Positions 36,862 through 56,949 of a stretch of 64,000 nt of DNA are shown in pieces. The number at the start of each line of letters is the position of its first letter. Positions within the stretch are counted from its first letter, which is position 1. A model generated the notes under the pieces. That model ran no database searches. It was given only the letters and a program-made list of their open reading frames with translations, and was not told where the DNA came from. Source of the DNA: Gammaproteobacteria bacterium (GTDB lineage Bacteria; Pseudomonadota; Gammaproteobacteria; GCA-002705445; GCA-002716945); the NCBI GenBank assembly GCA_018667355.1, contig JABIVC010000009.1, forward strand, positions 18,665 to 82,664, written 5' to 3'. Made by a program: the position numbers and the translations under genes.

Positions 36862-36868
36862 CATTAAT

Positions 36869-36939: not shown

Positions 36940-37021
36940 TAAATTACTACAGTACTCATATTCGGTGACAACCACCTAACAATATGGTACATTCTAATCT
37001 TCGAAATCTATGATTACCATA

Positions 37022-37908: not shown

Positions 37909-37977
37909 CTTGATATTCGACTTTTCTTGAATATCAAATGAATACAGATTATAGTAATTATTCATTCGGGGTTAATT

Positions 37978-39657: not shown

Positions 39658-41172
39658 ATGTTTTTCCGTCACTTGTTTACAAACAAAAGATTTTTGTTAC
39701 TAATTTCATCCATACTTCTATTATTTGCTTCAGTTCTAGGCTCAAGTGAATCAAAAATATATCACCTCATAATACATTTCGATATAACTACTATTATGGA
39801 ACACTATTCAGAATCTGATACATTCTTCAGAACACCAAGCACTCCATTAAGAATATTCTTATTCTCTATTTCTGCCAGTATGTTAATCTTAATTCCATTA
39901 TTAAAATTACCTACGATCTCGTATGAAAGTAAACATTTCAAGATTATTACAAAATATCTAATCGTCGTGTTTATGTTATCTATCTTATCTACTGAAAATT
40001 TATATAATATCGCCGCTTTAATCCTATTATTTATATCAATAATTTATTTAATATTTTTTTCATCAAAGAAATTTAGTCTCTTAGAAAAATATTTTCTTTC
40101 ATCGTATTTTTTAATATTTTATTATCCTTTTTTACATTCTTTTTTTATAGAAACTAATTTAGCAGAAATGGATAATTCAATACGATTCTTATTTGCTATA
40201 CCCGTATATTGCTTAATTAGAGAGATGAAGATAAATGAAGAGTATTTTAAGTTTATTGTGAATCATACTTCGCTAACAATAGGTCTTTTTGCAATATATT
40301 TTTCTTTTTCTCATGAATCTCTTAGAGTTAGTGGTTATACAAGTACTGCAACAATTTTTGGCAATATTGCACTGTTATTTTCATGCTTGTCCTTGTTATC
40401 CATGAAGTCTTTTAATCATAAATTTTTTAAGTATTATCCATTAATTTCTGGAATAATTGCTTTTTACGCTTGGAGCTTAACTGGCTCTAGAAGTTCATTA
40501 CTAATTTTACCTGTTTTTTTAACTATTTTTCTCTTTTCTAAAGACATAAGGAGTAATTTTTTATTTAAAGTCGATTTAAAATCATTAACCATGTTCTTTG
40601 TGGTTATGGCTATAATATTCTCTCAATCAACTGTATTTAATAGAATGGTTAATTCTTATGAATCATCTTATTCATATTTGTTTGAAAATGGAGAATATAA
40701 TTGGAGACATAAAGATAGCTTAGTACCAAGATTGACAATATGGAAAGGTTCTACAAATATAATATCTGAATACCCCCTTTTAGGTATAGGCCAAAGTAAT
40801 TTTAACAATCATTTAGTTCTTCAGATAAAAGATAAAAAAATTAATCCAATACGAAATAGTCCTGAAATGTTGGCAGCAGGGTTAAATCATGCGCACAACC
40901 AATATTTAGATACCTTTGCTAAGACAGGTATAATTGGTTTTATTATTCTAATATTCTTTATTTACATGAATTTATTATTCTTCTCGAAAAAGTATGTTAA
41001 TAATAGAAACTGTTTTTATTCTAAAGCGGGTTTATTTACTATTATCTCATATTCGACATATATGCTTAATCACACTATACTTTCACATCAGCAATCATCA
41101 TTGTTTTTATCATTTTTTTTGATAATTGTGGCTGCTTTAGCTAATAATAATATTTTAAAGGAAAAAGTATGA
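39658..41172 (+). CDS. waaL: O-antigen ligase family protein (Wzy_C/WaaL)
   Basis: Multiple TM segments, TGSRSS, R-x-x-IW, PLLGIG and HAHNQYLD. Confidence 0.85.
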   Translation: MFFRHLFTNKRFLLLISSILLLFASVLGSSESKIYHLIIHFDITTIMEHYSESDTFFRTPSTPLRIFLFSISASMLILIPLLKLPTISYESKHFKIITKYLIVVFMLSILSTENLYNIAALILLFISIIYLIFFSSKKFSLLEKYFLSSYFLIFYYPFLHSFFIETNLAEMDNSIRFLFAIPVYCLIREMKINEEYFKFIVNHTSLTIGLFAIYFSFSHESLRVSGYTSTATIFGNIALLFSCLSLLSMKSFNHKFFKYYPLISGIIAFYAWSLTGSRSSLLILPVFLTIFLFSKDIRSNFLFKVDLKSLTMFFVVMAIIFSQSTVFNRMVNSYESSYSYLFENGEYNWRHKDSLVPRLTIWKGSTNIISEYPLLGIGQSNFNNHLVLQIKDKKINPIRNSPEMLAAGLNHAHNQYLDTFAKTGIIGFIILIFFIYMNLLFFSKKYVNNRNCFYSKAGLFTIISYSTYMLNHTILSHQQSSLFLSFFLIIVAALANNNILKEKV

Positions 41173-42500
41173 AAATAACTATTATAGGGTGCGGTTATGT
41201 TGGGCTAGTGACTGGGGCATGTATGTCAGATATTGGACATGATGTTCTTTGTCTTGATATTGATGCTGCAAAAATTAAAAAATTAAACAAAGGTGTTATA
41301 CCAATTTATGAAAAAGGCCTTGATAGCATCGTATCTTTCAATCTAAAGAAGAAGAGATTAAATTTTACCACATCATATAAAAAAGCTGTTACTCATTCTG
41401 ATATCATTTTTATTGCTGTGGATACGCCTTCTAAAAAGAATGGCGATGCAGACTTATCTAGTATAGTGAAAACTTCTCAAAGCATTTCACAACATATGTC
41501 TAGGGATAAAATTATCATTGAAAAATCCACTGTACCAGTTGGGACGTCAGATTATATTCAGACTATCATCATGAAAGGTCTTAAATTAAGAAATAAAAAA
41601 CTAAATATTTCAATGGTATCAAATCCAGAATTTCTTAAAGAAGGCTCTGCCGTGGATGATTTTATGAAACCAGACAGAATAATAATAGGTCTTGATAACC
41701 AAGAATTGCAGCATATTTTTAATGAAATGTATCTCCCATTTAATCGCAAGTATAATAAAATTCATTATATGGATGTTAAGTCAGCTGAGCTAACCAAGTA
41801 TGCTGCAAATGCAATGCTAGCGACAAAGATTAGTTTTATTAACGAAATTGCTATACTTTCAGATAAACTAGGTGTTGATATTGAAAGTATAAGAAAAGGT
41901 ATTGGTGCAGATAAAAGAATAGGCAAAGAATTTCTTTACCCTGGATGTGGTTACGGAGGATCTTGCTTCCCAAAAGATGTGAAGGCGCTGATATCTACCG
42001 CAAAGAAGATATCTGTTGAAACATCACTATTAAAATCAGTGCATCAAGTTAATGATGCTCAGAAGCAATACCTTGTAGAAAAAGTTAAGCATATATTTAA
42101 AAATAAAATTAAAGGTAAAAAATTTGCAATATGGGGCTTAGCATTTAAACCAAATACAGATGATGTACGTGATGCTCCAAGCATTACTATTATCAAATCT
42201 CTTCTTAATGGAGGCGCTCATGTCATTGCTTATGATCCAATAGCATCTCTGGCAGAAATTATTAACTCTAGCCGCTACAATGAAGTATCTACTGCAATCT
42301 CTGCTCTACATGATGTAGATGCGTTAATTATATGCACTGAATGGAAAGAGTTCTGGTCAATAAATACTGATATATTCATTGATAATATGAAAAAACCTAT
42401 TATATTTGATGGTCGTAACATATTTTCACCAGAAAAGATGATGCGAAATTCCATTGAGTACTATGGTGTTGGGAGAGGTTTAAGCCTTTCAAAAAAATAG
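41169..42500 (+). CDS. ugd: UDP-glucose 6-dehydrogenase
   Basis: G-x-GYVG, EKSTVPVG, NPEFLKEG, GYGGSCFPKD and LAFKPNTDD. Confidence 0.95.
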   Translation: MKITIIGCGYVGLVTGACMSDIGHDVLCLDIDAAKIKKLNKGVIPIYEKGLDSIVSFNLKKKRLNFTTSYKKAVTHSDIIFIAVDTPSKKNGDADLSSIVKTSQSISQHMSRDKIIIEKSTVPVGTSDYIQTIIMKGLKLRNKKLNISMVSNPEFLKEGSAVDDFMKPDRIIIGLDNQELQHIFNEMYLPFNRKYNKIHYMDVKSAELTKYAANAMLATKISFINEIAILSDKLGVDIESIRKGIGADKRIGKEFLYPGCGYGGSCFPKDVKALISTAKKISVETSLLKSVHQVNDAQKQYLVEKVKHIFKNKIKGKKFAIWGLAFKPNTDDVRDAPSITIIKSLLNGGAHVIAYDPIASLAEIINSSRYNEVSTAISALHDVDALIICTEWKEFWSINTDIFIDNMKKPIIFDGRNIFSPEKMMRNSIEYYGVGRGLSLSKK

Positions 42501-42610: not shown

Positions 42611-43105
42611 GTGTGGATATTAGCTAAAACTAAGTGTAGACAAGAGGTGAGAGCAGAAAAAAACCTTAATAATCAGGGATTTAAATGCTTTTTGCCAACT
42701 ATTAATGTAAAAAAATTTATTAATAATGTCTGGACTGAAAAGAAAGAGGTCATGTTTTCGGGGTATTTATTTATAAATATAGCTAATCTAGCCCACAAAA
42801 TGCATAAAATTAATAATACATATGGTATTTCTAAATTATTAATCGATAAAGGCACAGGTTCTCCATATATAATCAATAATAGCTTAATCGAAGAAGTATC
42901 AGAAGAAGCGTCAAGAGCAAGTGATCGAGATAGTATAGAAAACGGAGATGCTGTAGTTATAACCAATGGTAAACTATCAACTTTTTCGGGTATTTTCCTG
43001 GAAAAATGTAGTAAATACAGAGCAAAATTATTAGTAACTTTTTTGAATAGTGAACAAGAACTAGTGGTAGATATTTCAGATATACAAAAAGTATATTTGA
43101 ATTAG
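42611..43105 (+). CDS. rfaH: RfaH-like NusG paralog (antitermination factor)
   Basis: W-x-x-x-x-TK-x-RQE-x-RA-x-x-NL-x-x-QG, F-x-GYLF, INNTYGI and KOW-like GDAVVITNG; GTG start. Confidence 0.88.
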   Translation: MWILAKTKCRQEVRAEKNLNNQGFKCFLPTINVKKFINNVWTEKKEVMFSGYLFINIANLAHKMHKINNTYGISKLLIDKGTGSPYIINNSLIEEVSEEASRASDRDSIENGDAVVITNGKLSTFSGIFLEKCSKYRAKLLVTFLNSEQELVVDISDIQKVYLN

Positions 43106-43123
43106 TTCTACTTATTGTCAAAC

Positions 43124-43161
43124 CTGATAGACATGTTTATGACTATTAGTGCGGTAGCCTG
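43124..43161 (+). promoter_or_regulatory. JUMPstart/ops-like element
   Basis: Hairpin CTGATAG...CTATTAG followed by GCGGTAGCCTG (ops consensus GGCGGTAGnnTG), ending 13 nt before the GT2 ATG. Confidence 0.7.
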
Positions 43162-43174
43162 TCTAAATAAAAAA

Positions 43175-44092
43175 ATGAGTATATCAGTTATCATTCCTTA
43201 TTATAATGAATCAGAAACTATCCTAAAAACGCTTAGGTCTATAGCATGTCAAAGTTATACACCTGATGAAGTATTACTAATTGATTCCGGTTCAACAGAT
43301 AAGACTTCATTATTAATAGATGAATGGATCAAGACCAATAAAATGAACCAATATAGAAATATATACTCTGGAATGATGTCACCTAGCTCATCTATAAATA
43401 AAGGCATTAAGAATTCAAAAAATAAACTTATAGCATATATGGATTGTGGTCTTGAAATACCCAAGAATTGGTTAATGAGTAATTATAAATTATTAAATAA
43501 AGCTGAGAGTGATATAGTGTCTACAGTCATTTATACAGCTGGAAAAAGTATTATTGATCAATCATTTATATCTCAGACTTATGGATATCAAAATAAAACA
43601 GTATGTCTTCCTGGGTCTTTAATTAATAAAAAAGTATTTAACAAAATAGGATATTTAATTGAATCAGTCAGAGCTGGTTATGATATAGATTTTGTAAATA
43701 AACTCAAAAAGTCAAATATTAAAAGAGTAGTGAATAGAGATATAGCTCTAAAATATTATAATTTTAATTATTGCCAAACATTTTTATCAGGATTTAAAAA
43801 AGTATATTCATATTCTCTTTCTGGATGGAAAACAAAAGGTGATATTAAGCCAGCAATATATATATCAATGTTTTTTTTATTTTTAATTTCAATGTATTTA
43901 GAGTCTTATTACTTATTAATACTATATCTATTAACTAGAGGTTTTATGATTCCATTTTATAAATCAAATTATAATATATTAATGTTATTACCACATAGAG
44001 TTATATTTAACTGTATTACTGGAATGATAATTGAAATATCAAGAGTAATAGCATATTCAAATATATTTAGAATGAAGAGTAGTGAGGGATAA
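43175..44092 (+). CDS. Glycosyltransferase family 2
   Basis: [17 protein letters not shown] and YMDCG. Start moved to ATG 43175. Confidence 0.9.
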
Positions 44093-44099: not shown

Positions 44100-44468
44100 A
44101 TGTCAAAAAAAGAAAATATTGATAATGATTTAAAGGTAATTAGATATTTGCATGATAGGCAAAATACTAATCAACGAGAAATGTCAGAATCATTAAATAT
44201 TAGCCTCGGAAAAGTAAACTATATTTTGAAAGCTTTGATGGAGAAAGGTATAATCAAGGCTAGAAATTTTAAAAGCAATAAGAATAAGCGTGCATATATG
44301 TACTTTTTGACACCTAAAGGTATTGAAGAAAAAGCAAAGCTAACACTCAGCTTTTTTGACAGAAAAAGTCAAGAATATGATAGACTCAAGAAAGAACTTA
44401 TAGAATTAAAAAAAGATATGGAAGACACTGCGGTAAATAACTCAAATAAAGGTAAAGAGAATGACTGA
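44100..44468 (+). CDS. EPS-associated MarR-family transcriptional regulator
   Basis: QRE[23 protein letters not shown], NF[21 protein letters not shown] and EYD-x-LK match the TIGR04176-type pattern. Confidence 0.9.
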
Positions 44469-45501
44469 TGAGATAAATTTAGATAATTTTTTAAAAAAAA
44501 TAGTTGAGAGCAAGAATATTTTATTAGGTATTATAATTATTAGTTTTGTGTCCTCTATATTTATTGCCCTATCTAAAACTGAAACATTTAAAGCAGATGC
44601 ATACCTAATACCTCCAGAAAGTAGATATATTCAACCATTAAATGTTTTTTTATCGGATGGATATAGATTGGATAGAAGTTCGTTTACCAGAGGAGATGTC
44701 TATAGAACATTTGTCCTCAACATGCAATCAAGAAAATTCCAAAGAAGATTTTTCTTTGAAAAAGAAATATATAAAAATTATGAGGAAACCAATCTTGAGA
44801 AGTCATTCGAAGTTAATTTTTATAACAATATGAGATTTTCTTTAGACTCTAAAATTACTGATAGAAGTAATAGGCAAGAACAGTTTCTAAAGGTTAGTTT
44901 TATTGGTTTAAATCCTGAATTATCTGCTAAATGGCTAAATGATTATATTCAAATGGTCAATATCATAACATCCCAGGATTTTGTCGATGGTGTAAATGTT
45001 TTGATTTCAAATACTAAAAATACATTATCCTCAGAAATTAATAGCAAAAAAAATCTAGCTGAACAGATAAAGCAAGACAGAATAGTTTTACTAGAAGAAG
45101 CTTTTTCTATTGCCGAAGATCTTAACATCATTGATAGAGAAAAGAGTTTGTCTAATCAACAAAATGTCATCTTAAGTAAAGATGAAAATATAAGTTCAAA
45201 ATCTCCGCTCTATTTATTAGGTACTAAAGCAATAAGATCAGAGATTAATACATTAAAGAATCGTAATAACTCAGAATCATTCATCCCTGGGTTCAGACAA
45301 CTTCAAGAGAAGGCCAAAGCATTAGATTCAATAAAGGTAGATGCTGTGAATGTAAGATCAGCTCAAATTGACCAAAAAGCTATCACACCTATTTCACGGT
45401 ATGAACCCAAAAGAAAGCTTATAGTTTTATTAGGATTAATCACAGGATTCTTTATATCTTTCTTATATGTTCTCGCGATGTTTATTATTTCTAGAAAATA
45501 A
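44461..45501 (+). CDS. wzz: Chain-length determinant Wzz/FepE
   Basis: Two terminal TM helices, a coiled periplasmic region, and P-x-x-x-x-x-PKRKLI-x-x-LG-x-x-x-G. Confidence 0.9.
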
Positions 45502-45583: not shown

Positions 45584-46930
45584 ATGACTACTTATAACAT
45601 CAACTACTATAATATTCTTAAACTCACCTTATTGTTTTTATTCATAGGGGTTTTTTTAAAAGCTATATCAAAGCCACCGGCTGTACTTATTGAGTTAGTG
45701 CTCATTCTGAGTCTATTAGGCATATCACTAATATACTTATTTGAGAAGTTTCAGATAAATTCACTTCATACTATTGTTCTATACATATTTTTTCTTTACT
45801 TGATAGGACATTTTTTAGTCGCAACTATTATGAGGCCTGATGAGTTAAATTTACCTTTTTATAAAGTTTTACAATATAACTTGCTTGAGTTTAGACTCTC
45901 ATCACTGGGTTATTTCTTGCCACTTATATTTATACCATTGAGTAAGTTTAATACTGAAAAATTTGAAAAATATCTGATTGTATTAATCAAGTTTTCAGTA
46001 ATATACACATTACTTGAACAGTTTATCTCCTTAATAGGATTTCGTTATATTTTTGAAATTGCATATTCAAATACAAGCGTTGTTACTTCTAATTTAGTAG
46101 GAGTTAAAACTCTTGGGTTGTATAGAATATGGGGCTTAATGGGTGCACCACAATTATTAGGTGTATTTCATGTAATAACTTTATTCTATTTTATGGAAAA
46201 AGGAATGAAAGGGTGGTCAATTGCCAGTATATTTGCTGTGATTGCTAGTACTTCCAAGACTGCCTATGTAATTCTTATATTGCTTGGTTTTTTATATTTA
46301 CTCTATAAAAGAAAATATTTTATATTTATATTATTATCAGGGTTTGGTATTTTTGCCATTATCGCTTCTTTCGCTACTTATTTTTATTTAATTAGAGATG
46401 GTATATACACTGACGAGTATCCGAAATTTATACAATTTGTTGGTTCAGTTCACGGTTATTATCTACTTTTGGATCAAGTAAGGTATATAAAAGAAAATGA
46501 AGATGGCACTGGAATGCAAGATTTCTTTAGCCAAGGAGGAATCTTAACCACTTTAGCAACTTATTATCATAACAATCCACTGGATATTTATCTTGGGAAG
46601 GGTATGTCTTATTCTATATTCAAGTATAGTGGTGGAAGCAGTACAGATCCTCTGTTTGCATACAAATACTTAACATCTGAATATTATATCCTGACATATT
46701 TCAATCAATATGGTATTTTAGGTCTTGCGCTTTTCTTGTATTTATTCTTGGTTTACCCTGTGTATAAAATTTTAAAAGGTTGCGAGATATACTACTTCAT
46801 TCCTGTTGCATTCTTTTTAGCAACATTACATTATCCGCCACAAATACCAAAATTAATGATGGTCTTGGTTGGCTATGCTATGTGGAAAATTTATATTGGT
46901 TATATTAGGGAAGAACGTGATGCTAAATAA
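45584..46930 (+). CDS. wzy: Putative O-antigen polymerase Wzy
   Basis: About 10-12 hydrophobic segments with a large periplasmic loop; directly follows wzz. Confidence 0.65.
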   Translation: MTTYNINYYNILKLTLLFLFIGVFLKAISKPPAVLIELVLILSLLGISLIYLFEKFQINSLHTIVLYIFFLYLIGHFLVATIMRPDELNLPFYKVLQYNLLEFRLSSLGYFLPLIFIPLSKFNTEKFEKYLIVLIKFSVIYTLLEQFISLIGFRYIFEIAYSNTSVVTSNLVGVKTLGLYRIWGLMGAPQLLGVFHVITLFYFMEKGMKGWSIASIFAVIASTSKTAYVILILLGFLYLLYKRKYFIFILLSGFGIFAIIASFATYFYLIRDGIYTDEYPKFIQFVGSVHGYYLLLDQVRYIKENEDGTGMQDFFSQGGILTTLATYYHNNPLDIYLGKGMSYSIFKYSGGSSTDPLFAYKYLTSEYYILTYFNQYGILGLALFLYLFLVYPVYKILKGCEIYYFIPVAFFLATLHYPPQIPKLMMVLVGYAMWKIYIGYIREERDAK

Positions 46931-47609
46931 AAAGCCTACAGTTATCATATTATGTGGTGGCAAGGGAATGAGATTAAGGCCTATAACTAATGATTTACCA
47001 AAACCATTAATCCCGATATCTGGAAAACCTGTTTTACATTATATAATTAATCAATGTATGAAATATGATTTAGATAAATTTGTTATTGCAACTGGATATA
47101 AGTCTAAAAAAATCAGTGAGTTCATAGATAGTAATTTTAGAGACTTAGATTGCGCATTAGTTGACTCTGGTGATTCTGATATAATTAATAGGATAAGGGA
47201 TTGTCTTGATCTTATTGATGATGACTTTATCTTATGCTACGGGGACACAATTTCAGATATTAATTTAAATAATTTACAAGAATATCATAAACTACAGTCA
47301 AATATTTCTACAGTGACATCTTTTCCAATCTTAATTCCATTCGGAGTAATGAGTCTTGATGATGATAATTATGTAAAAAGTTTCATAGAGAAGCCAGTAT
47401 TAAAAGACGTAATGAATATTGGTTATTTTTACTTTTCCAAGGTACATCACAATCTCTTTTTTAAACACAACAGCTTCATTGAAGTATTAGATGATTTATG
47501 TAATCAAAAAGAACTAAAGTGCTACAATCATGCTGGTATACATATAACAATAAACACAATTCAGGAACTTGAATATGCAAACGCAAACATCAGCAAAATA
47601 CTTAAATAA
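46920..47609 (+). CDS. Sugar-phosphate nucleotidyltransferase (RfbF/DdhA-like)
   Basis: ILCGGKG-x-RL, PKPL and F-x-L-x-YGD. Start moved to ATG 46920. Confidence 0.85.
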   Translation: MLNKKPTVIILCGGKGMRLRPITNDLPKPLIPISGKPVLHYIINQCMKYDLDKFVIATGYKSKKISEFIDSNFRDLDCALVDSGDSDIINRIRDCLDLIDDDFILCYGDTISDINLNNLQEYHKLQSNISTVTSFPILIPFGVMSLDDDNYVKSFIEKPVLKDVMNIGYFYFSKVHHNLFFKHNSFIEVLDDLCNQKELKCYNHAGIHITINTIQELEYANANISKILK

Positions 47610-48642
47610 GAGTTTTTGGAAAAATAAAAATGTGCTAGTAACCGGAATCAACGGTTTTATTGGTGGTAACTTAGCAAAAGTCTTATTAAGCCTAGGGGCA
47701 ACTGTAATTGGTATCACAAACAAAAACTATAAAAATAAATTTCTTATATTTGAAAAAATTCATAACAAATTAAATTTTCATAAAGTAGATATTAAAAATT
47801 ATTCTGCTCTAGAAAAGGTAGTGAACCTCTATAGTATCGATATGTGTATACACTTAGCTGCACAAGTGGATGTTAATATCGCTAAAACTAATCCTTATGA
47901 AACATTTGAGGCCAATATCAAAGGAACATATAACCTTTTAGAAATTTTGAGAAAAAAAGGAAACATCAAATCAATAGTGATTGCTTCTTCTGACAAAGCA
48001 TATGGCGAATATAAAGTATCAGATTTGCCATATAAAGAAGATTATGACTTAAGACCTTTGTACCCATATGATGTATCAAAGGCCGCAGCAGATATGATTG
48101 CTAAATCATATGCATCGGATTTATTCTCATTACCAGTTATAACAACAAGATTTGCAAATATATATGGACCAGGACAACTTAACTTTACCGCCCTTATACC
48201 TGATTGTATATTAGCTAACCAAGGCAATAGAAAATTTATACCACGTGGAGATGGTACTAATCAAAGAGATTTCTTATATGTAGATGATGTTTGTGATTTA
48301 TATCTATGCCTCTCTTACAATCTCTATAATAATACAAAATATAAAGGTGAAATTTATAATGCTGGTACAGGGCATGGATATACAGTCAGAGAGATAGTCG
48401 AAAATATTTGTCAATTATATGATAACAGCAAGCTATTTAACCAAATTGATAAAAAATTTGTTAATAAAAAACTATCAGGAGAAATTCAACATCAGTTTAT
48501 GACATATGATAAGCTTTACAAAACATTTAAATGGCAACCAAAACATAATATAAAAGATGGGCTCATAGAAACTATAAGATGGTATGATAAATTCTTGAAA
48601 AGATATTCATACAAAAGTTTTACGGATTTAAATAAAAGATGA
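47575..48642 (+). CDS. NDP-hexose 4,6-dehydratase-like extended SDR (RfbG-like)
   Basis: FWKNKNVLVTG-x-x-GFIG, SSDKAYG and YDVSK. The start is uncertain. Confidence 0.8.
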   Translation: MQTQTSAKYLNKSFWKNKNVLVTGINGFIGGNLAKVLLSLGATVIGITNKNYKNKFLIFEKIHNKLNFHKVDIKNYSALEKVVNLYSIDMCIHLAAQVDVNIAKTNPYETFEANIKGTYNLLEILRKKGNIKSIVIASSDKAYGEYKVSDLPYKEDYDLRPLYPYDVSKAAADMIAKSYASDLFSLPVITTRFANIYGPGQLNFTALIPDCILANQGNRKFIPRGDGTNQRDFLYVDDVCDLYLCLSYNLYNNTKYKGEIYNAGTGHGYTVREIVENICQLYDNSKLFNQIDKKFVNKKLSGEIQHQFMTYDKLYKTFKWQPKHNIKDGLIETIRWYDKFLKRYSYKSFTDLNKR

Positions 48643-49784
48643 AAAGAATTTTAATATTAGGTGCTGATGGTTATCTTGGCTGGGCATCAACAGTTGCATT
48701 ACATCAAGATGGACATAAGTTGACAATAGTTGATAATTATTCAAAACGTAAATATATGAAGGAACTAAATCGTGATCCTCTCGTAACCTTACCAAAACTG
48801 AAGACTAGACTTACATCAATTAATAAGACAAGACATAAAATAAATATCTATGATAAAGATTGTACAAATTATGTAGAATTAAAAGCTATAATAAAAAAAC
48901 ATAAGCCAGAAGTTATCATTCATTTTGCAGAATTACCATCTGCTCCATTCTCAATGCTAAATAATATATATGGATGGAAAACATTGCAGAATAACATTCA
49001 AAGTACTTTTAATGTTGCTCATATTATAAAAGAGATAAATCCTGATTGTCATATTATTAAACTTGGTACCATGGGTGAATATGGAACTCCTAATATTGAT
49101 ATTGAGGAAGGATGGCTGAAAGTTAATCACAATGGCAGGAATGATAAGTTTCTCTATCCAAGGCAAGCATCTAGCCTATATCATACATCAAAAATTATGG
49201 ATACAGATTTGCTTTGGTTTTATACAAGGATGAACAATTTAAGGGTTACTGATTTAATGCAAGGACCTGTATATGGTTTATGCGTTAATTCAGCTAATGA
49301 GAAACCCATGGAATCTACTTTTACATATGATGATATATTTGGAACTGTATTAAATAGATTTATTGTCCAGGCTGTTGCAGGGATACCCTTGACAGTTTAT
49401 GGTTCTGGAAATCAGATAAGAGGTTATATCAATATTGCTGATACAATTGATTGTATACGATTAACATTAGCAAATACTCCTCATAGTGGGAAATTAAATA
49501 TTTACAACCAATTTACTCAGCAGTTTTCTGTTAATGAATTAGCAAAGTTAGTTAAAGTCTCACTTAATGAAATAGGTATTAATACTAAAATTACTAAAAT
49601 CTCTAATCCTAGAATTGAAAAAGAGAAACATTATTATAATGCAAAGCATACAAATATTAATAAAATTGGGTTGAAACCAACACTCTTGGATTCGGAAGTC
49701 ATTATAGATATTGCTAAATATGTGTTGAAGCATAAATCTAAAATTAATAAAAAAATAATAAATCCAAAGGTTAAATGGAAATGA
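48639..49784 (+). CDS. sqdB: UDP-sulfoquinovose synthase-like protein (SqdB/SQD1/Agl3 family)
   Basis: G-x-DGYLGW, HFAE-x-x-SAPFSM, KLGTMGEYGTPNIDIEEG, P-x-QASS-x-YH-x-SK and FGT-x-LNRF-x-VQA-x-x-G-x-PLTVYG. Confidence 0.85.
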   Translation: MKRILILGADGYLGWASTVALHQDGHKLTIVDNYSKRKYMKELNRDPLVTLPKLKTRLTSINKTRHKINIYDKDCTNYVELKAIIKKHKPEVIIHFAELPSAPFSMLNNIYGWKTLQNNIQSTFNVAHIIKEINPDCHIIKLGTMGEYGTPNIDIEEGWLKVNHNGRNDKFLYPRQASSLYHTSKIMDTDLLWFYTRMNNLRVTDLMQGPVYGLCVNSANEKPMESTFTYDDIFGTVLNRFIVQAVAGIPLTVYGSGNQIRGYINIADTIDCIRLTLANTPHSGKLNIYNQFTQQFSVNELAKLVKVSLNEIGINTKITKISNPRIEKEKHYYNAKHTNINKIGLKPTLLDSEVIIDIAKYVLKHKSKINKKIINPKVKWK

Positions 49785-50764
49785 AGATTTTGATAACAGG
49801 TGGACTTGGCTTTATAGGGTCAAATCTTGTAGCTTATCTTCTTAAAAAAAAGAAAATATCACAGATATTAATAGTAGATAATTTAAGTAAATCCTCCGTA
49901 AAATATCTAGAATCTATAACTAAATTTAAATTCTTTAATAACATTAAAGACTATAAAAAATCTAAATCTAGAGTTGTTGTTGTCAAGGCTAATGTTATTG
50001 ATTTTAAAATAGCCAATATCCTTACAAAAAATATTGATAGCATAGTTCACTTAGCAGCTGAATCTGGTATAGACATATCTATATCAAATCCTAGAGAATC
50101 TTTTGAAACAAATGTAATTGGAACATTTAACTATTTGGAATCAGCAAGATTAAATAATGTTAAGTCTTTTATATTTGCCTCAAGTGGATCAGTATTTGGT
50201 GATGTTAAGCCACCAATGATAGAGAGTTACCCAAGAATACCTATTGCTCCATACGGATCAAGCAAGCTATCTATTGAATCTTATTGTGAGACATATTCAA
50301 AAGTATTTAATATCAAAACAACTATACTCAGATTTAGTAATGCATATGGCTTATATTCTAGTCATAAAAAAAGTGTTGTAGCGAATTTTATCAAATCAAT
50401 ATTAGATAATCAGCCAATAATTATTAATGGCGATGGCAAGCATACACGTGACTATGTTTTTGCTGAAGATTTAGTTGATGCCATTTATAAGTCAATATTT
50501 AAAAAAGATAAAAATAATATTTTTCATATTTCAACAGGAATAGAAACTACAACTAATAAACTTTTAAGTATATTAAAAAAAATATCCTATAAGTATAAAT
50601 TAAATATCCCTAATATAAAGAATATTTCTAGCAGAGTAGGCGATATGAGATTTAATAGTCTATCCACTAAACATACTGAAAAGAATCTTAGGTGGAAACA
50701 TAAAATATCTATTGATAATGGAGTAGAGCGCACTTTAAAATGGTTTCTAAAGTCATATAATTAA
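49781..50764 (+). CDS. NAD-dependent epimerase/dehydratase (GalE-like)
   Basis: ITGG-x-GFIG, HLAA, ASSGSVFG, PYGSSK, RFSNAYG and TRDYV. Confidence 0.88.
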   Translation: MKILITGGLGFIGSNLVAYLLKKKKISQILIVDNLSKSSVKYLESITKFKFFNNIKDYKKSKSRVVVVKANVIDFKIANILTKNIDSIVHLAAESGIDISISNPRESFETNVIGTFNYLESARLNNVKSFIFASSGSVFGDVKPPMIESYPRIPIAPYGSSKLSIESYCETYSKVFNIKTTILRFSNAYGLYSSHKKSVVANFIKSILDNQPIIINGDGKHTRDYVFAEDLVDAIYKSIFKKDKNNIFHISTGIETTTNKLLSILKKISYKYKLNIPNIKNISSRVGDMRFNSLSTKHTEKNLRWKHKISIDNGVERTLKWFLKSYN

Positions 50765-50776: not shown

Positions 50777-51886
50777 ATGAAATATACCTTCATGCTCCCT
50801 AGAAAAACTGATCTTATTATTTTTGATAATAATGAGTATGAAATGCTATTGAGTACTGTAATACCTCGAGAATACACAGCGCAATTAATGGATAGTAGCA
50901 TATCTTGCATCTACCTAAATCCTATATTTTTATTTGTATATATTATAACAGTAATCAAGAATCTATTGACGGGTTCTAAAGTAAAGTCAGCTCTTTATAA
51001 ATCATATCTATTATGCATTTTAAAATTTATTAAACCAAAAGTTGTCATTACATTTACAGATAATAGTTTAGTTTATCATTGGCTAGTAAAATATTATAAA
51101 AAAGCAAGATTTATCGCTATACAAAATGGTGTGAGACAGCCGTATCAATTTAAAATAATTAAGTCATCAACGGATATTATGATAAATCATGATATTTTTT
51201 ACTGCTTTGGGCGCTATGATGTAAAAAGACATGGAGAAATGGGTTTTACCATAAATACCCCTATACCAATTGGTTCTTTGAGGTTATCTAATTTTAATGA
51301 CTTAAATAGAAAAATAACTCCTGAATATGATATATGTTTAGTTTCAAAATATGGAAAAACTAATCCTCTAAAAAAACCATTAATAGATGAGTTTATATAT
51401 AATTCAAATAGACTAGATTTAGATGTTGCCAAGCTTGCTAAAAACAAAAAACTTAAAGTAGTTATTGCTTTAAGAGGATCGCCCAAAGAGGAAGCTTATT
51501 ATCGTAAGATTTTTGGAGATTATGCAACATATGTAGAGAATAAAGATAGCGAGAGTAGCTACAGAGCATGTTTTTCAAGCGAGTTAATAATTTCTTATCA
51601 ATCATCGATGCTCATTGAAATGTTAGCAAGCAAGAAAAAGGTCTTGCATGTTGATTACACCTCTAATAAAGATATTTTTGGGTATGAGGGTGCTATTAGA
51701 TTAGATTATGTTGATTATTCAAATTTTGAACACCATGTTATCAATCTTTTATCCATTGATTACAAGATTTATGAAAAACTTGTGAAAGATGATCAGATTA
51801 AATTTATGAACCATAGTAGTAGTAACCCACCAAATGTCATAATAAAAAATCATATTGACAAATTAATGAGGAGCTCTATTGTATAA
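50777..51886 (+). CDS. Uncharacterised glycan-biosynthesis protein, possibly a GT-B-like transferase
   Basis: KPKVVITFTDN, IAIQNGVR, YCFG and SSMLIEML...KKV. Position inside the locus supports a glycan role; family not firmly identified. Confidence 0.5.
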   Translation: MKYTFMLPRKTDLIIFDNNEYEMLLSTVIPREYTAQLMDSSISCIYLNPIFLFVYIITVIKNLLTGSKVKSALYKSYLLCILKFIKPKVVITFTDNSLVYHWLVKYYKKARFIAIQNGVRQPYQFKIIKSSTDIMINHDIFYCFGRYDVKRHGEMGFTINTPIPIGSLRLSNFNDLNRKITPEYDICLVSKYGKTNPLKKPLIDEFIYNSNRLDLDVAKLAKNKKLKVVIALRGSPKEEAYYRKIFGDYATYVENKDSESSYRACFSSELIISYQSSMLIEMLASKKKVLHVDYTSNKDIFGYEGAIRLDYVDYSNFEHHVINLLSIDYKIYEKLVKDDQIKFMNHSSSNPPNVIIKNHIDKLMRSSIV

Positions 51887-53642
51887 ATTACTTAAAAAAT
51901 CTTTCTTATTTTTTGATAGTACTGATAAAAAAAGCTTGACTATATTATTGTTTTTATATGTATTAGTAGGCTTAATTGAAATATTTGGAATAGCTTCTAT
52001 AGTTCCCTTTGTTGGCCTTCTTACTGACCCAGAATATTTTAATAATAATGAATATGTCATGGTATTTAAAAACTATTTCTCTCTACAAAGCAATGAGCTT
52101 CTTATGGTTTCAGGTTTCATACTTATAGGTATATTTGTTTTAAGCAATATACTAAATGCTTTAGTATTATGGAAAACTCTTGAGTTTGGAACAAATCATA
52201 GTTATAAGACGTCACTCATAATTCTAGAAAAATATTTAAAACAACCATATAAATTTTTTGTTAATGCGGATATTTCATCACTTAAGAAAAATATCCTTGA
52301 TGAATCTATTCGCTTAGCTGAATCAATATTTCTACCAATGTTACACATACTATCAAGAGTTATTCTTTTGACTTTCATTAGTATATTATTAATTTCGGTA
52401 AATACACAAGCTTTCATATATTCATTACTAATTATTGGAATAATGTATTTACTTATCTTTGTTGTCATAAAAAATATGCTTAAAAAATATGGAGATATAA
52501 GGCTTTCCGCTAATGATAAAAGGTTCAAAACCGTAAATGATTGTTTAAATAGTATCAAAGATATTAAATTTTATAATGCTGAGAAAAAGTATCTAACAAG
52601 TTATTCACAGTCGTCAAATATTTTTTTATGGCTCACAGCAAAAAAAACATTAATCTCAACACTGCCTAGATATTTTATTGAAATAATTGCGTTTGGTGGG
52701 TTCTTTTCAATAATTCTATATTTAACTTATGGTAGCAATGATATATCTACTTCTTTACCTACAATCGCTTTATTTATACTTGCTGCTTATAGGATACTTC
52801 CATCTATGCAACAAATATTTGCTTACTCAAGTTCAATTAAATTTCACATACCCGCATTAGATCTTATTTCAAAAGTAATCAAACTATCCGATAATGCATC
52901 GACTGGAATTGAACCTATAGATTCAAGAGAAGAAGTAATTATTTTTGATAATGTATCTTTCTCGTATGATTCTAATAAAACAATATTGAATAATGTCTCA
53001 TTTAAATTAAATAATCCTGGCATTACTGCAATTATTGGGTCAACCGGGGCAGGGAAGACAACTTTAATTGATTTGTTGCTTGGACTTTATAAACCTACAA
53101 CGGGATTAATTAAGATTCGAAAACTATTATCAGCGCATAGTCTAGATAAAGAAATTAGTTATGTGCCACAAAATATTTCGTTTGTTGATGATAGTATTAT
53201 TAATAATATAGCATTTGGTATTGATGAAAGCTTGATTGATAACGGTAGGGTTACAGATTCATTAAAGGCTGTAAAACTCGATCATCACATAAGTACTTTG
53301 CCCGATGGACTCTTGTCAGAAATAGGTGAAAATGGTGTTAAGTTTAGTGGTGGCCAGTTACAGAGACTTGGGATAGCAAGGGCACTATATTTCAATCCAC
53401 AGATTTTAGTTCTAGATGAGGCTACAAATGCTTTAGATATAAAAACAGAGGAAGAAATCTTGTTATCTTTGAAAAATAACAATCCTAATCTAATAATAAT
53501 ACTTATTACTCATAGAACTTCAGCTCTCAAGTTATCTGACAATATATTACATTTATCCAAAGGCAGCCTGAAGATGATGGATATCAATAATAAAGATTTA
53601 TCAATAGAGAAGCTATTAAAAGATACAGTTTATAATAATTGA
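51879..53642 (+). CDS. ABC transporter, fused TMD-NBD (PglK/MsbA-like flippase)
   Basis: Six TM segments, Walker A GSTGAGKTT, signature FSGGQ and Walker B LVLDEAT; TTG start. Confidence 0.9.
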   Translation: MYKLLKKSFLFFDSTDKKSLTILLFLYVLVGLIEIFGIASIVPFVGLLTDPEYFNNNEYVMVFKNYFSLQSNELLMVSGFILIGIFVLSNILNALVLWKTLEFGTNHSYKTSLIILEKYLKQPYKFFVNADISSLKKNILDESIRLAESIFLPMLHILSRVILLTFISILLISVNTQAFIYSLLIIGIMYLLIFVVIKNMLKKYGDIRLSANDKRFKTVNDCLNSIKDIKFYNAEKKYLTSYSQSSNIFLWLTAKKTLISTLPRYFIEIIAFGGFFSIILYLTYGSNDISTSLPTIALFILAAYRILPSMQQIFAYSSSIKFHIPALDLISKVIKLSDNASTGIEPIDSREEVIIFDNVSFSYDSNKTILNNVSFKLNNPGITAIIGSTGAGKTTLIDLLLGLYKPTTGLIKIRKLLSAHSLDKEISYVPQNISFVDDSIINNIAFGIDESLIDNGRVTDSLKAVKLDHHISTLPDGLLSEIGENGVKFSGGQLQRLGIARALYFNPQILVLDEATNALDIKTEEEILLSLKNNNPNLIIILITHRTSALKLSDNILHLSKGSLKMMDINNKDLSIEKLLKDTVYNN

Positions 53643-53652: not shown

Positions 53653-54657
53653 ATGAAAAATAAAAAAATACTTATAACAGGTGCAGATGGATTCATAGGA
53701 TCACACCTAACTGAAAAGCTCATACGAATGGGTTGTGATGTTAGAGCTATGTGTTTATATAACTCGTTTAATTCCTGGGGATGGCTTGATAGCATTAATA
53801 AAAAATTATTAGATAAAGCCGATGTTGTCTTGGGTGATGTCCGCGATATCAAATCTGTTAAAAAAGCATGTAAAAATATAGATTATGTTTTCCATCTTGC
53901 ATCATTAATAGCAATACCTCACTCTTATAACTCGCCATATTCTTATTTGCATACTAACGCTGAAGGTACGATGAATATTCTTGAGGCATGTACTGATACT
54001 AATGTTACAAAAATTATTCATACGTCAACAAGTGAGGTATATGGTGATATAAAGAAGATGCCTATATCTGAATCCGACAAAATATTTGCTAAGTCTCCAT
54101 ATTCAGCAACTAAAATTGCTGCAGATCAGATTGCTGAATCATATTACAGTTCTTTTGGTTTACCCGTAACTATAGTAAGACCTTTTAATACTTATGGTCC
54201 AAGACAATCAAATAGAGCCATAATACCAACTATTATCAGTCAAATATTAGATGGTAAAAAAAAGATTAAACTTGGATCACTGTATCCAACTAGAGATTTC
54301 TCATATATTGATGATACAGTAAATGGATTTATATCAGCTGCAATATCAAAAAATAGTATAGGTGAAACTTTTAATATCGGTGCAGGCTATGAAATATCCA
54401 TAGGTGATTTATTTAATGTGATAAATAAACTATGCGGAAGTAATGCTAAAATAAAAACTGACAGTGTACGTATTAGACCAAAATCAGGTGAAGTATATAG
54501 GTTGAAAGCTGATAATAAAAAAGCAAAAAAGATAATTAAGTGGGAACCTAAATATTCTGGTAAGTCAGGACTCATAAGGGGTCTTAAAAATACTATTGAG
54601 TGGTTTAGCAAGGAAGAAAACCTCTGTAAGTATAAAACTGATCATTATATTACTTAA
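53653..54657 (+). CDS. legB: NDP-GlcNAc 4,6-dehydratase LegB
   Basis: TGADGFIGSHL, YNSFNSWGWLD, LIAIPHSY, SPYSATK and RPFNTYGPRQS. Confidence 0.9.
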   Translation: MKNKKILITGADGFIGSHLTEKLIRMGCDVRAMCLYNSFNSWGWLDSINKKLLDKADVVLGDVRDIKSVKKACKNIDYVFHLASLIAIPHSYNSPYSYLHTNAEGTMNILEACTDTNVTKIIHTSTSEVYGDIKKMPISESDKIFAKSPYSATKIAADQIAESYYSSFGLPVTIVRPFNTYGPRQSNRAIIPTIISQILDGKKKIKLGSLYPTRDFSYIDDTVNGFISAAISKNSIGETFNIGAGYEISIGDLFNVINKLCGSNAKIKTDSVRIRPKSGEVYRLKADNKKAKKIIKWEPKYSGKSGLIRGLKNTIEWFSKEENLCKYKTDHYIT

Positions 54658-54658
54658 A

Positions 54659-55807
54659 ATGTACGATAGTATAATTAAAAAAATTAGAAAATGTTTGCCT
54701 ACAAATGTAAAAAAATATGCAGTCCATGAGCCCTCTTTCCCTAAAAAAGTGCTTAGGGAAATAGAAAAATGTATAGACTCAAGTTATGTGTCAACATCAG
54801 GAGAATATTTAGATAAATTCACCAGAGAATTACAGGAGATAACTAATTCTAAATATGTTGTGTTAACATCTAGTGGTACAGCGGCGCTATTCTGTGCGCT
54901 AGAAGAAATTAATATTTCTGGATGTGAAGTGATTATGCCTTCAATGACATTTGTTGCTACTCCAAACGCTGTTATACATGCTAGTGGAATTCCAAATTTT
55001 ATTGATAATAGTAAATACTCTCTAAATATAAATGCTGAAATCCTAGATAAATATTTAAATGAGAATACTATGCAAGTGAAGGGTAGCTGCATTAATAAAA
55101 AATCAATGAGACGTATACGATGTATTATTGTAGTGCATGCATATGGTACAGCAGCTAATGTTACCAATATTTGCAAGGTTGCAAAAAAACATAAAATAGA
55201 AGTTTTGGAAGACGCTGCTGGTGCACTTGGCTCATATGAATATAACAAACATGTCGGGACTATATCACGCATGGGTGCCTTAAGCTTTAATGGAAATAAA
55301 ATCATAACTACAGGAATGGGTGGAGCATTGCTTCTTAAAAGCAAAAAAGACTATGAACGAATATCTCATAAAATAAGTACTGCTAGACTTAAACATGAAT
55401 GGAAAGTAGAGCATGATATGGTTGGATATAATCTTCGAATGGCTAATATAAATGCTACTTTAGGTTATTGTCAAATCACTGATTTCAAAAAAACATTAAA
55501 GATAAAAAGAAAATTATACAATGATTATCGTGAAATCTTTTATAATGATAAATATTGTTATATTAAAGATGAAGAGCCGAATACTACCAATAATAACTGG
55601 GTAACTAATTTATATCTAAGAGATAGTTTTAAAGATAAACATCAAATCTTAATCAAAAGACTGCATAAAAGTAATATTTTGGCACGAGAATTATGGAAAC
55701 CTATGCATTTACTTCCAATGTTTAAGAGTATGCCTCGAACACGTATGAAAAATTCAATAAATAATTGGAAAACAGGGCTCAGTTTACCTAGCAGTTATTA
55801 TAAATGA
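54659..55807 (+). CDS. legC: LegC-family PLP aminotransferase (DegT/DnrJ)
   Basis: HEP, TFVAT-x-NA, EDAAGALGS, SFNGNKIITTG-x-GG and GYNLRM. Start moved to ATG 54659. Confidence 0.88.
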   Translation: MYDSIIKKIRKCLPTNVKKYAVHEPSFPKKVLREIEKCIDSSYVSTSGEYLDKFTRELQEITNSKYVVLTSSGTAALFCALEEINISGCEVIMPSMTFVATPNAVIHASGIPNFIDNSKYSLNINAEILDKYLNENTMQVKGSCINKKSMRRIRCIIVVHAYGTAANVTNICKVAKKHKIEVLEDAAGALGSYEYNKHVGTISRMGALSFNGNKIITTGMGGALLLKSKKDYERISHKISTARLKHEWKVEHDMVGYNLRMANINATLGYCQITDFKKTLKIKRKLYNDYREIFYNDKYCYIKDEEPNTTNNNWVTNLYLRDSFKDKHQILIKRLHKSNILARELWKPMHLLPMFKSMPRTRMKNSINNWKTGLSLPSSYYK

Positions 55808-56949
55808 TTAAAAAAAGAACAATATGCGTCCTTTCTTCTAGTAGAGCAGATTATAATCATCTATATTTACTTATGAAGAGCTTAAAAGAATCACAAATAT
55901 TTGATTTTAAGCTTTTGGTGACAGGGATGCATCTTTTAAAAAAATATGGAGATACATACTCTGAATTAGTTAAAGATGGTTTTAAAATTGATGGTTTCAT
56001 AAAAAATTCTAGTCTGAATAATAATCATAATCAAATTTTAAATTTAATGTCTGATCAGTTATCAAATGCAGGCAAGCAGTTAGATAAAATTAATCCAGAT
56101 ATTTTGGTTATCTTAGGTGATAGATATGATGTATTACCGATAGCAATCGCATCTCATATAAAGGGAATTGCTATTGCACATTTTCATGGTGGTGAAGTTA
56201 CTCATGGAGCTATAGATGATGCAATTAGACATGCAATTACTAAATTCTCTGATATACATTTCGTAAGTAATAAAGAATTTAAGAAAAGAGTGCAACAATT
56301 AGGTGAAAATACAAAAAATGTTCATAATATTGGTTCGTTAGGTGTACAGGCTATTAAATTAACACCAATAATTTCAAAACAAGAAATTCAAGAGCATTTT
56401 GATATTCATGGAGATTATATTTTAATTGCTATTCATCCAGAAACAATCAATGCTGATAATATCAGAATGATTAAATCACTATTCGATGTCTTATCTAAAG
56501 ATATATCTCATCAAATTATATTCACTAGCCCTAATTCGGATCCTGGAAATGAAATAATAATTAAAAATATTAAATCTTTTTTAAAAGATCACCCGAAGAA
56601 AGCAAAGTTTATTGTTTCAGCTGGTAGAGAACTTTTCATTAACTTAATGAGACACTGCAATTTCATTATTGGTAATTCATCATCTTGCGTTATAGAGGCG
56701 CCAGCTCTAGGTATCAAATCTATATTAATTGGTGATAGACAATCAGGTCGACCAATATCATCAAGTGTCAGTCAATCATCTTTTAGTCGTAAATCTATAA
56801 GTAGTCAGATAAAAATAACAGAAAACTTAAGAAAGACTAGTGCTAAAAAGATTCATTATAAAGGTTCAAATACAATTCCAAAAATATTAAAAATACTCGA
56901 AACTGTACCTTTGAAAGAAATAAAATTAAAGAAGTTTAAAGATATATAA
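55804..56949 (+). CDS. legG: Hydrolysing NDP-diacetamido-sugar 2-epimerase (LegG/NeuC)
   Basis: SRADY, GDRYD, HFHGGE, D-x-x-IRHAITK, IHPET and GNSSS. Confidence 0.88.
   Translation: MIKKRTICVLSSSRADYNHLYLLMKSLKESQIFDFKLLVTGMHLLKKYGDTYSELVKDGFKIDGFIKNSSLNNNHNQILNLMSDQLSNAGKQLDKINPDILVILGDRYDVLPIAIASHIKGIAIAHFHGGEVTHGAIDDAIRHAITKFSDIHFVSNKEFKKRVQQLGENTKNVHNIGSLGVQAIKLTPIISKQEIQEHFDIHGDYILIAIHPETINADNIRMIKSLFDVLSKDISHQIIFTSPNSDPGNEIIIKNIKSFLKDHPKKAKFIVSAGRELFINLMRHCNFIIGNSSSCVIEAPALGIKSILIGDRQSGRPISSSVSQSSFSRKSISSQIKITENLRKTSAKKIHYKGSNTIPKILKILETVPLKEIKLKKFKDI

Follow-up and report, generated by a model that had tools for sequence, protein, structure and literature searches.

An SQD1-like enzyme of a Pro101 subfamily and a candidate route to a sulfonated sugar in a bacterial surface-glycan cluster

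What is a homologue of SQD1 – the plant synthase of uridine diphosphate (UDP)-sulfoquinovose, a precursor of sulfolipid – doing among the genes for a bacterial surface glycan? The question is raised by a stretch of 64,000 nucleotides (the window, below) of contig JABIVC010000009.1 from the genome of a marine gammaproteobacterium (assembly GCA_018667355.1), in which four co-directional open reading frames (ORFs) at 46920–50764, on the + strand, include one for an SqdB-like protein. The run is best explained as a nucleoside-diphosphate-sugar module that forms part of an O-antigen-like surface-glycan cluster of the Wzz/Wzy type, and we lean, somewhat beyond even chances, towards the view that it makes a sulfonated UDP-hexose for an O-antigen-like glycan, using an enzyme in which Pro replaces Arg101 of SQD1 (the Pro101 type). 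Taken part by part, the product is very probably destined for a glycan rather than for sulfolipid, and its sulfonation can be called fairly probable; that the sugar differs from plain sulfoquinovose, or that the pathway is split between enzymes, is a tentative suggestion. The run comprises:

46920–47609, + strand: gene 1, sugar-1-phosphate nucleotidyltransferase (PF00483, 80.5 bits)
47575–48642, + strand: gene 2, dehydratase-type extended short-chain dehydrogenase/reductase (SDR) with the motif S-D-K ... Y-x3-K (dTDP- and CDP-glucose 4,6-dehydratase models, below cut-off)
48639–49784, + strand: gene 3, SQD1/SqdB-like enzyme of the Pro101 subfamily (full-length match to PDB 1qrr)
49781 (or 49775)–50764, + strand: gene 4, GalE-like extended SDR (PF01370, 170 bits)

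A first-pass annotation had called these four genes and described them as an overlapping run, correctly so by the ORFs, the Pfam and NCBIfam models and the junctions: from the gene for a 448-residue membrane protein just upstream through gene 4, successive overlaps measure 11, about 35, 4 (ATGA) and 4–10 nucleotides, and the opposite strand of the run holds no ORF of 80 residues or more. The order Wzy-like, nucleotidyltransferase, dehydratase-like, SqdB-like and GalE-like recurs in relatives at 60–70% identity (loci L004, L007–L010, L167 and L169) and is therefore a conserved rather than a chance arrangement. Many metagenome contigs, as well as the metagenome-assembled genome (MAG) GCA_018674415.1, encode a product identical to the SqdB-like protein, with unchanged neighbours.

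The SQD1-like enzyme and linked sulfate-reduction genes

Gene 3 is predicted, from its sequence, to encode a sulfite-adding UDP-hexose enzyme. Residues 1–381 of its protein align with residues 1–383 of Arabidopsis SQD1 (1qrr_A; E=8.4e-106) at 42% identity, a distance equal to that of the validated SqdB of Sinorhizobium meliloti (43%). The fingerprint given for UDP-sulfoquinovose synthases, [ST]MG...Yx3K (PMC8987622, Table 1), is satisfied by GTMGEYG and YHTSK, with His directly after the catalytic Tyr; in SQD1 numbering, the protein retains His96, Thr145–Met146–Gly147, Glu148, Tyr149, Tyr182–His183 and Lys186. Across 66 sequences of the Pro type, His96, Met146, Glu148, Tyr149, Tyr182, His183 and Lys186 are each kept in 64–66.

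Two aids to naming were set aside. The cut-off of model NF041015 (575 bits) was dropped as a test of orthology because a true cyanobacterial SqdB also falls below it: the gene 3 protein scores 419 bits, the Nostoc SqdB encoded next to SqdX 478 and an acidobacterial SqdB 497, which means that this cut-off cannot tell the types apart. Product names from the Prokaryotic Genome Annotation Pipeline (PGAP) proved uninformative, S. meliloti SqdB itself being called 'NAD-dependent epimerase/dehydratase family protein'.

The strongest argument for sulfonated sugars comes from the genes near relatives of gene 3. Two sets of genome loci were compared, 80 retrieved with the window protein and 80 with SQD1, with 66 Pro-type loci analysed; the query patterns had matches in at least 585 loci of GTDB species representatives. 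Genes for sulfate activation or reduction lie within 10 kb in 7 of the 80 Pro-type loci, from diverse phyla, and six of these have a reductase of 3′-phosphoadenosine 5′-phosphosulfate (PAPS), as against none in the fetched flanks of the 80 Arg-type loci (Fisher one-sided p=0.007) and a rough genome-background expectation of less than one locus. The carriers of CysH-type reductases belong to the Pseudomonadales, a deltaproteobacterium, Chloroflexi (two loci), Alphaproteobacteria and Bacteroidota, and five of the six reductases exceed the NF002537 cut-off of 154 bits (205–268 bits). Their arrangement is as follows, APS being adenosine 5′-phosphosulfate:

L034 (Chloroflexi): CysH-type reductase, GalE-like, PseB-like and SqdB-like genes as a single run, upstream of which lies an ATP-sulfurylase/APS-kinase fusion
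L082 (Bacteroidota): core order as in L034
L022 (Pseudomonadales): cluster that opens with APS kinase and CysH
L071 (Alphaproteobacteria): CysH directly downstream of the SqdB-like gene
L029 and L062: additional CysH copies
L013: ATP-sulfurylase/APS-kinase fusion

ATP-sulfurylase or APS-kinase genes thus occur in L013, L022, L034 and L071. An APS kinase by itself was discarded as evidence of sulfite and PAPS reductases alone were counted, since the kinase is equally useful to sulfotransferases; a sulfotransferase needs PAPS, not its reduction. A PAPS reductase in a glycan operon has no obvious role except to feed a consumer of sulfite – hence the weight given to it here – and the linked reductase genes independently support the use of sulfite by the Pro101 subfamily. 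The sulfonated surface glycan of the first-pass annotation accordingly finds support in several phyla, from operon-like runs that join Pro-type SqdB-like genes to bona fide PAPS reductase and ATP-sulfurylase/APS-kinase genes; the exact sugar does not follow in the same way.

The window protein is a member of a large, widespread and uncharacterised sister subfamily of UDP-sulfoquinovose synthases. The Pro101 type is defined here by the replacement of Arg101 by Pro, of Asn208 by Met and of Val211 by Pro, all three of which the gene 3 protein carries. Thirteen positions are conserved within each of the two sets and differ between them, including R101P, K176R, L184T, H191D, N208M and V211P; the subfamily-specific residues include Pro101, Met208, Pro211, Thr184, Thr190–Asp191, Arg176 and Trp160, and the gene 3 protein has 12 of the 13, the exception being Ala at position 16. 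A further 103 positions, among them the C-terminal substrate-domain motifs, are conserved and identical across both types. The Pro type forms a single neighbour-joining bipartition (24 of 30 bootstraps) and accounts for all of the top marine database matches; no Pro-type gene was found on plasmids in the plasmid collection. Candidate carriers in culture include Neptuniibacter sp. PT8_73, Desulfatibacillum alkenivorans DSM 16219, Rubrobacter marinus and Jezberella montanilacus. The missing Arg101 and the separate branch set the protein apart from the assayed synthases, so that, while the homology to SqdB and SQD1 claimed in the earlier annotation is real, its relation to validated SqdB, SQD1 or Agl3 (the synthase of Sulfolobus acidocaldarius) is not one of orthology, and their activity and sugar are not simply transferable to the window protein. 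Phylogeny and neighbourhoods, suggested at that stage as a check, gave a distinct Pro101 branch sited in glycan clusters.

Several observations weigh against sulfonation. All 80 loci retrieved with the window protein carry Pro101, as do 119 of the best 120 database matches, and all 80 retrieved with SQD1 carry Arg101; Arg101 is also kept in SQD1 itself, in cyanobacterial and acidobacterial genes, in S. meliloti SqdB and Marinovum sqdB, and in Agl3, whose residues were read from segments encoded by published mutagenesis primers. The Ala mutants of Agl3 at His95, Arg101, Met145, Tyr182 and Lys186 are inactive (PMC4388408), and of these essential residues the gene 3 protein has the His, Met, Tyr and Lys, with Pro in place of Arg101. 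Asn208, by analogy with GalE a neighbour of the substrate site, is Met, and the two changes together may have cost the enzyme a polar or cationic pocket. We take Arg101 to correspond to Lys84 of GalE and Asn208 to Asn179, an alignment that serves as a lead only. In a deltaproteobacterial locus (L075, the same as L173; 6347–11149), an alphaproteobacterial-type Arg101 SqdB gene and a Pro101 gene lie 2.4 kb apart, with a GT2 glycosyltransferase and a GalE-like SDR between them, which argues that the two types are non-redundant. Genes for sulfite supply accompany only about 9% of Pro-type loci and are absent from the window, and the open-access literature searched holds no report of a sulfonated sugar in bacterial lipopolysaccharide or capsule.

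Upstream of the SqdB pair, L075 further encodes a GT4 glycosyltransferase, a radical SAM protein, a methyltransferase and a deacetylase. Its Arg-type copy was tried as a query for Rhodobacter-type genes, but everything that it retrieved belonged to a small group in large sulfur bacteria; the alphaproteobacterial Arg-type class was obtained through the plasmid collection. The homologues in large sulfur bacteria (Parabeggiatoa, Thioploca and Thiotrichaceae MAGs; L174–L180) are of the alphaproteobacterial type, with Arg101 and GTMGVYGY.

Partner genes and the candidate pathway

Were gene 3 an ordinary UDP-sulfoquinovose synthase serving sulfoquinovosyl diacylglycerol (SQDG), its lipid glycosyltransferase would lie elsewhere in the genome and its place in a glycan cluster would be incidental. 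The homology to SQD1 is strong enough for this, sqdB and sqdX are unlinked in certain cyanobacteria (PMC13436972), and the part of the genome covered comprised the 64-kb window with its flanks on the same contig. Neighbourhoods speak otherwise. Directly after the cyanobacterial Arg-type genes comes SqdX, and after the alphaproteobacterial ones SqdD and SqdC, whereas near the Pro-type genes none of the three was found, the searches returning only weak generic GT4 matches. In the window, tblastn with SqdX, SqdD and SqdC gave no homologue (the sole match at E≤1 spans 26 residues, E=0.26), which extends to all 64 kb the earlier remark that none lies nearby. The gene also overlaps glycan genes, its position in glycan clusters is conserved across phyla, and its subfamily stands apart from every sulfolipid-linked lineage, so that a role in SQDG synthesis seems very improbable.

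The acidobacterial Arg-type loci (L086–L163) do not lie beside SqdX. Their recurrent neighbours are an AsnB-like protein, a 631-residue multi-pass protein (ArnT-like by eye), a 389-residue GT2-like protein and small EamA-like membrane proteins, and may constitute a system for polyprenol-linked sulfoquinovose transfer.

What accompanies the Pro-type genes instead is other SDRs. A dehydratase-type SDR, a GalE-like SDR or both lie within two genes in 58 of the 66 loci, as against 5 of 79 Arg-type loci with another SDR of these kinds within four genes. The dehydratase type is present in 53 of the 66, as a PseB/CapD-like protein in 47 and as an S-D-K extended SDR in 6, including the window. In 44 loci the PseB-like partner (279 bits with the PseB model, of the UDP-N-acetylglucosamine (UDP-GlcNAc) dehydratase family) is encoded directly upstream of the Pro-type gene, the median gap being 1.5 nucleotides; a GalE-like SDR of the window's kind is close by in 23 of the 66. 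The pair of SqdB-like and GalE-like genes is found in every marine relative at 60–70% identity, and the nucleotidyltransferase and dehydratase-like genes in most, both being missing from L171/L172 and the dehydratase-like gene from L006. WbpM-like, WecA-like, DegT, deacetylase, GT2/GT4, AsnB-like and Wzy_C genes mark the loci of these marine relatives as surface-glycan clusters. At the start of its glycan cluster (37–1583), L171/L172 carries an APS kinase and an unannotated 339-residue protein, which hints at PAPS-dependent sulfation on top of the SqdB-like step.

Such partners also suit a neofunctionalised paralogue that has given up sulfite, and that would act as a UDP-hexose 5,6-dehydratase or, on what the neighbouring dehydratase makes, as a 4-ketoreductase, while the GalE-like protein would complete a non-sulfonated 6-deoxy sugar, much as Pen and Pal do. 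Besides the loss of Arg101 and Asn208 and the frequency of the dehydratase-type partner, several findings fit this idea: 13 of 30 loci with a PseB-like partner lack any further reductase or aminotransferase nearby that could take up its 4-keto product, Agl3 deprived of sulfite gives off UDP-Glc-5,6-ene (PMC4388408), and the GalE-like partner counts Pal (6bwl) among its structural relatives. A simple reductase, however, has no need of the fully conserved Thr-Met-Gly, Glu148, Tyr149 and His183, and the PAPS reductase genes in the same operons would be hard to account for. We consider a paralogue of this kind unlikely, and return to the sulfite-using enzyme, with which the 13 of 30 loci hint that the PseB-like partner cooperates.

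The first-pass annotation had wondered whether the sugar might be linked to cytidine diphosphate (CDP), which would have gene 1 make CDP-glucose and the SqdB-like enzyme sulfonate a CDP-linked sugar. The best models for genes 1 and 2 do come from CDP-glucose pathways, with structures that match as well: for gene 1, glucose-1-phosphate cytidylyltransferase (TIGR02623, 102.3 bits, cut-off 300.25) and, as the closest solved structure, 1tzf (E=4e-20, a partial match); for gene 2, CDP-glucose 4,6-dehydratase (TIGR02622, 162.8 bits, cut-off 278.45), beside dTDP-glucose 4,6-dehydratase (178.7 bits, cut-off 365), with PDB matches to 6bi4 (E=8e-41) and 1rkx (E=2e-28). The active-site pair of gene 2 is Asp-Lys, an acid/base pair assigned to CDP-glucose 4,6-dehydratases and to UDP-GlcNAc inverting and 5,6-dehydratases (PMC8987622). 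These scores, though, fall far short of the curated cut-offs, the substrate-domain motifs at the C terminus of the SqdB-like protein match UDP-using SQD1, its pairing with the GalE-like protein persists in L171/L172 without genes 1 and 2 and in L006 without gene 2, and the partner in other loci is of the UDP-GlcNAc-dehydratase family. A CDP-linked route is left without support and seems improbable.

Gene 4 has the motif SSGSVFG...YGSSK, neither an Asp/Glu nor an Asp/Lys pair, and structural relatives in 2hun, 4zrm, Pal (6bwl) and WbgU; it would be of the 4-epimerase or 4-ketoreductase type. On the model of SQD1 and Agl3, bound NAD+ would first oxidise C4 of a UDP-hexose; water would be eliminated across C5–C6, sulfite added at C6 of the enone, and C4 re-reduced to leave UDP-6-deoxy-6-sulfo-hexose. 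The translationally coupled GalE-like SDR would most likely tailor C4, by ketoreduction or by epimerisation toward a sulfofucose-type configuration, the latter being attractive because sulfofucose still lacks a known biosynthetic route (PMC12421959). A transferase of the cluster would then put the sulfosugar onto a lipid-linked repeat unit, and the flanking ABC exporter, Wzy-like, Wzz and Wzy_C proteins would export, polymerise and ligate the glycan. Sulfite addition by the Pro101 subfamily, the kind of hexose (glucose or GlcNAc), the role of the GalE-like SDR and the final acceptor are what we infer in this scheme.

The linkage to the UDP-GlcNAc-dehydratase family, together with the replacement of two polar pocket residues by Pro and Met, leaves room for a substrate of the GlcNAc type, and candidate products are a 6-sulfo-N-acetylquinovosamine-type or a sulfofucose-type sugar. 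Lu et al. (2015) reportedly described sulfoquinovosamine in the S-layer glycan of Haloarcula hispanica, and the idea that Pro101 enzymes might act on 2-amino sugars is an unverified lead. The partner SDR may, in a split version of the pathway, supply a 5,6-ene or 4-keto intermediate to which the Pro101 enzyme adds sulfite. A split of the Pen/Pal kind is possible for PseB-like and other dehydratase partners, which may equally serve another sugar of the repeat unit. It is a speculative reading, which we would give less than even chances, that the Pro101 enzyme, the linked dehydratase-type SDR and the GalE-like SDR together form an undescribed, widespread bacterial route to a sugar with a C–S bond other than plain sulfoquinovose.

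The surface-glycan cluster and its host

Around the run, the cluster is made up as follows:

39658–41172, + strand: Wzy_C-family membrane protein of the O-antigen ligase/polymerase family (PF04932 on the identical product in L001; zero NCBIfam matches)
41169–42500, + strand: UDP-glucose/GDP-mannose dehydrogenase family protein, Ugd-like (PF03721, PF00984, PF03720)
42611–43105, + strand: RfaH/NusG-like antiterminator (PF02357; RfaH model TIGR01955, 102.5 bits, cut-off 144.5)
43115–44092, + strand: GT2 glycosyltransferase (PF00535)
44461–45501, + strand: Wzz-like chain-length determinant (PF02706, 22.3 bits, and PF13807, 25.6 bits, both slightly below cut-off; WzzB/FepE NCBIfam models weak)
45584–46930, + strand: polytopic membrane protein of 448 residues, putative Wzy-type polymerase (no Pfam match of its own)
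50777–51886, + strand: LA_1612-like transferase of GT-B fold, 369 residues (TIGR04441, 58.9 bits, cut-off 150)
51879–53642, + strand: ABC exporter, PglK/MsbA-like, candidate flippase for a lipid-linked glycan (PF00664, PF00005)
53653–61557, + strand: nonulosonic acid pathway of the legionaminic acid type (by model scores)

The hallmarks of an O-antigen cluster are thus present – Wzz, two Wzy_C-family proteins, a PglK-like ABC exporter, GT2 and an RfaH-like protein – most of them below curated equivalog cut-offs; the exporter, for instance, reaches 314.8 bits with the PglK model NF050066, whose cut-off is 1000. The second Wzy_C-family assignment is that of the 448-residue protein, which is 42% identical over its full length to a carrier of PF04932 (L171:6691–8004) and whose cluster (C6) is found upstream of the module in marine relatives, co-inherited with the SqdB-like gene. 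In the nonulosonic acid region, NeuC passes its cut-off (357.3 bits against 235.9), while LegB (463.7, cut-off 475), LegC (378.8, cut-off 420) and NeuB (377, cut-off 399.65) fall below theirs; a PtmE-like nucleotidyltransferase, a GFO oxidoreductase, a cytidylyltransferase (PseF model, 126.6 bits, cut-off 205.7) and a PtmA-like SDR complete it. The earlier description of an O-antigen-type cluster beside a nonulosonic acid pathway is borne out by the Wzz, Wzy_C, exporter and Leg/Neu models, in the sense that the setting is O-antigen-like and that O-antigen, capsule or another glycan would all fit the sequence. The run had also been placed between wzy and the flippase gene: a Wzy-like gene does lie directly upstream, but the gene for the LA_1612-like protein separates the run from the exporter gene.

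A MarR-like regulator is also encoded upstream of the run, among the cluster genes. The RfaH ops motif GGCGGTAG is absent from the window, and scans for promoters and terminators gave nothing beyond chance.

The LA_1612-like protein ('surface carbohydrate biosynthesis protein') has no match in the Pfam copy used, and its homologues carry PF27908. Its AlphaFold2 model (predicted local distance difference test, pLDDT, 86.7) has a GT-B fold, for which the top Foldseek matches are TagF/TarL CDP-alditol transferases, the GT4 enzyme BshA and UDP-GlcNAc 2-epimerases, at template-modelling (TM) scores of about 0.55; TagF and TarL, the teichoic acid polymerases with the closest folds, use CDP-activated donors. 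Beyond position 62800, after the nonulosonic acid genes, the same contig (L165) encodes HisF/HisH-like proteins, a second GATase, another nucleotidyltransferase, a methyltransferase and a 933-residue protein with CTP_transf_like and PEP-utilising domains, which suggests additional unusual modification of the glycan. About 2.5 kb upstream of the first glycan gene (39658) is a cluster of tRNA-Gly, tRNA-Cys and tRNA-Leu genes (36789–37105), with two unrelated genes (37111–39651) between; the G+C content, about 0.31–0.36 upstream, falls to 0.27–0.30 over the glycan cluster (40000–64000), and the two features together resemble a variable glycan island. At 16151–16495 lies a gene for tmRNA.

As for the host, the window encodes a full-length SoxB (741 bits, cut-off 550), a bona fide one that makes 'sulfur oxidiser', the label given earlier, a fair description. 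SoxB adjoins MsrP (448.8 bits, cut-off 207) and a Ferric_reduct-domain, MsrQ-like partner at 21169–24394, and is the only sox gene seen in the window. The first 12 kb (4213–6849 and upstream; L164) hold genes for isocitrate lyase, isocitrate dehydrogenase, aconitase, fumarase and a TonB-dependent receptor; with SoxB, they suggest a mixotrophic lifestyle.

A 2024 review counts two monosaccharides with a direct C–S bond (PMC11407970). The open-access literature searched places such sugars solely in archaeal N-glycans, certain algal glycolipids and the sulfolipids that phototrophs and a few bacteria make, and it holds no report of sqdB-like genes in O-antigen clusters or of the Pro101 subfamily. 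A 2026 review presents phototrophs as the makers of aquatic sulfoquinovose and heterotrophs as its consumers (PMC13436972). The window gene is no stray sulfolipid gene; it belongs to a widespread, glycan-dedicated and probably sulfite-using branch of the SQD1 family. Should this branch furnish sulfonated sugars for the surface glycans of bacteria, heterotrophs and chemoautotrophs would make sulfonosugars as well, and the cell surface would gain a permanently anionic charge free of phosphorus. Metagenome surveys that take each sqdB-like gene as a marker of sulfolipid would then be counting another pathway. Should the split or non-sulfoquinovose version hold, non-phototrophs of many phyla, including abundant marine clades, would bear sulfonated O-antigens or capsules and constitute an unrecognised source of sulfonosugars.

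Comparison with known systems

With SQD1 and cyanobacterial SqdB (EC 3.13.1.1, PDB 1QRR), the window protein is collinear over its full length and shares the extended-SDR fold family, the GxxGxxG, T-M-G, Glu-Tyr and Y-H-x-x-K motifs and an SQD1-specific insertion; it differs in Pro101, Met208 and Pro211, in its separate branch and in lying in a glycan cluster with partner SDRs rather than beside SqdX. Agl3 of Sulfolobus acidocaldarius offers the precedent of UDP-sulfoquinovose that goes to a surface N-glycan and not to a lipid, and its modified dehydratase mechanism probably applies to the window protein (PMC4388408); unlike the latter, however, Agl3 keeps Arg101 and belongs to an archaeal, dolichol-linked system.

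The alphaproteobacterial sqdB–sqdD–sqdC operons (S. meliloti, Marinovum) resemble the run in that an SqdB homologue is followed by sugar-pathway genes, including the SDR-like SqdC, but their SqdB has Arg101, GTMGVYGY and HQG and is followed by the GT8 lipid transferase SqdD, and neither SqdD nor SqdC is found in the window. Pen and Pal of Bacillus thuringiensis, which work through a released UDP-6-deoxy-5,6-ene, likewise place an Asp-Lys dehydratase-type SDR beside a second SDR for the ene or keto intermediate; they yield a precursor of pseudaminic acid and use no sulfite, and the partner in the window is a different, SQD1-like SDR. The pair is a possible model for how the dehydratase-type partner and the Pro101 enzyme might cooperate. 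Finally, a haloarchaeal class, represented on plasmid pNVE414 of Natrinema versiforme (L185, 4995–8164), shares Pro101; downstream of its SqdB-like gene come two SDR genes and then genes for a DUF2304 protein, a methyltransferase and a GT4. It is very divergent (TTTGVYGA, WYHLTK), and its partner SDRs share only about 25% identity with their counterparts in the window.

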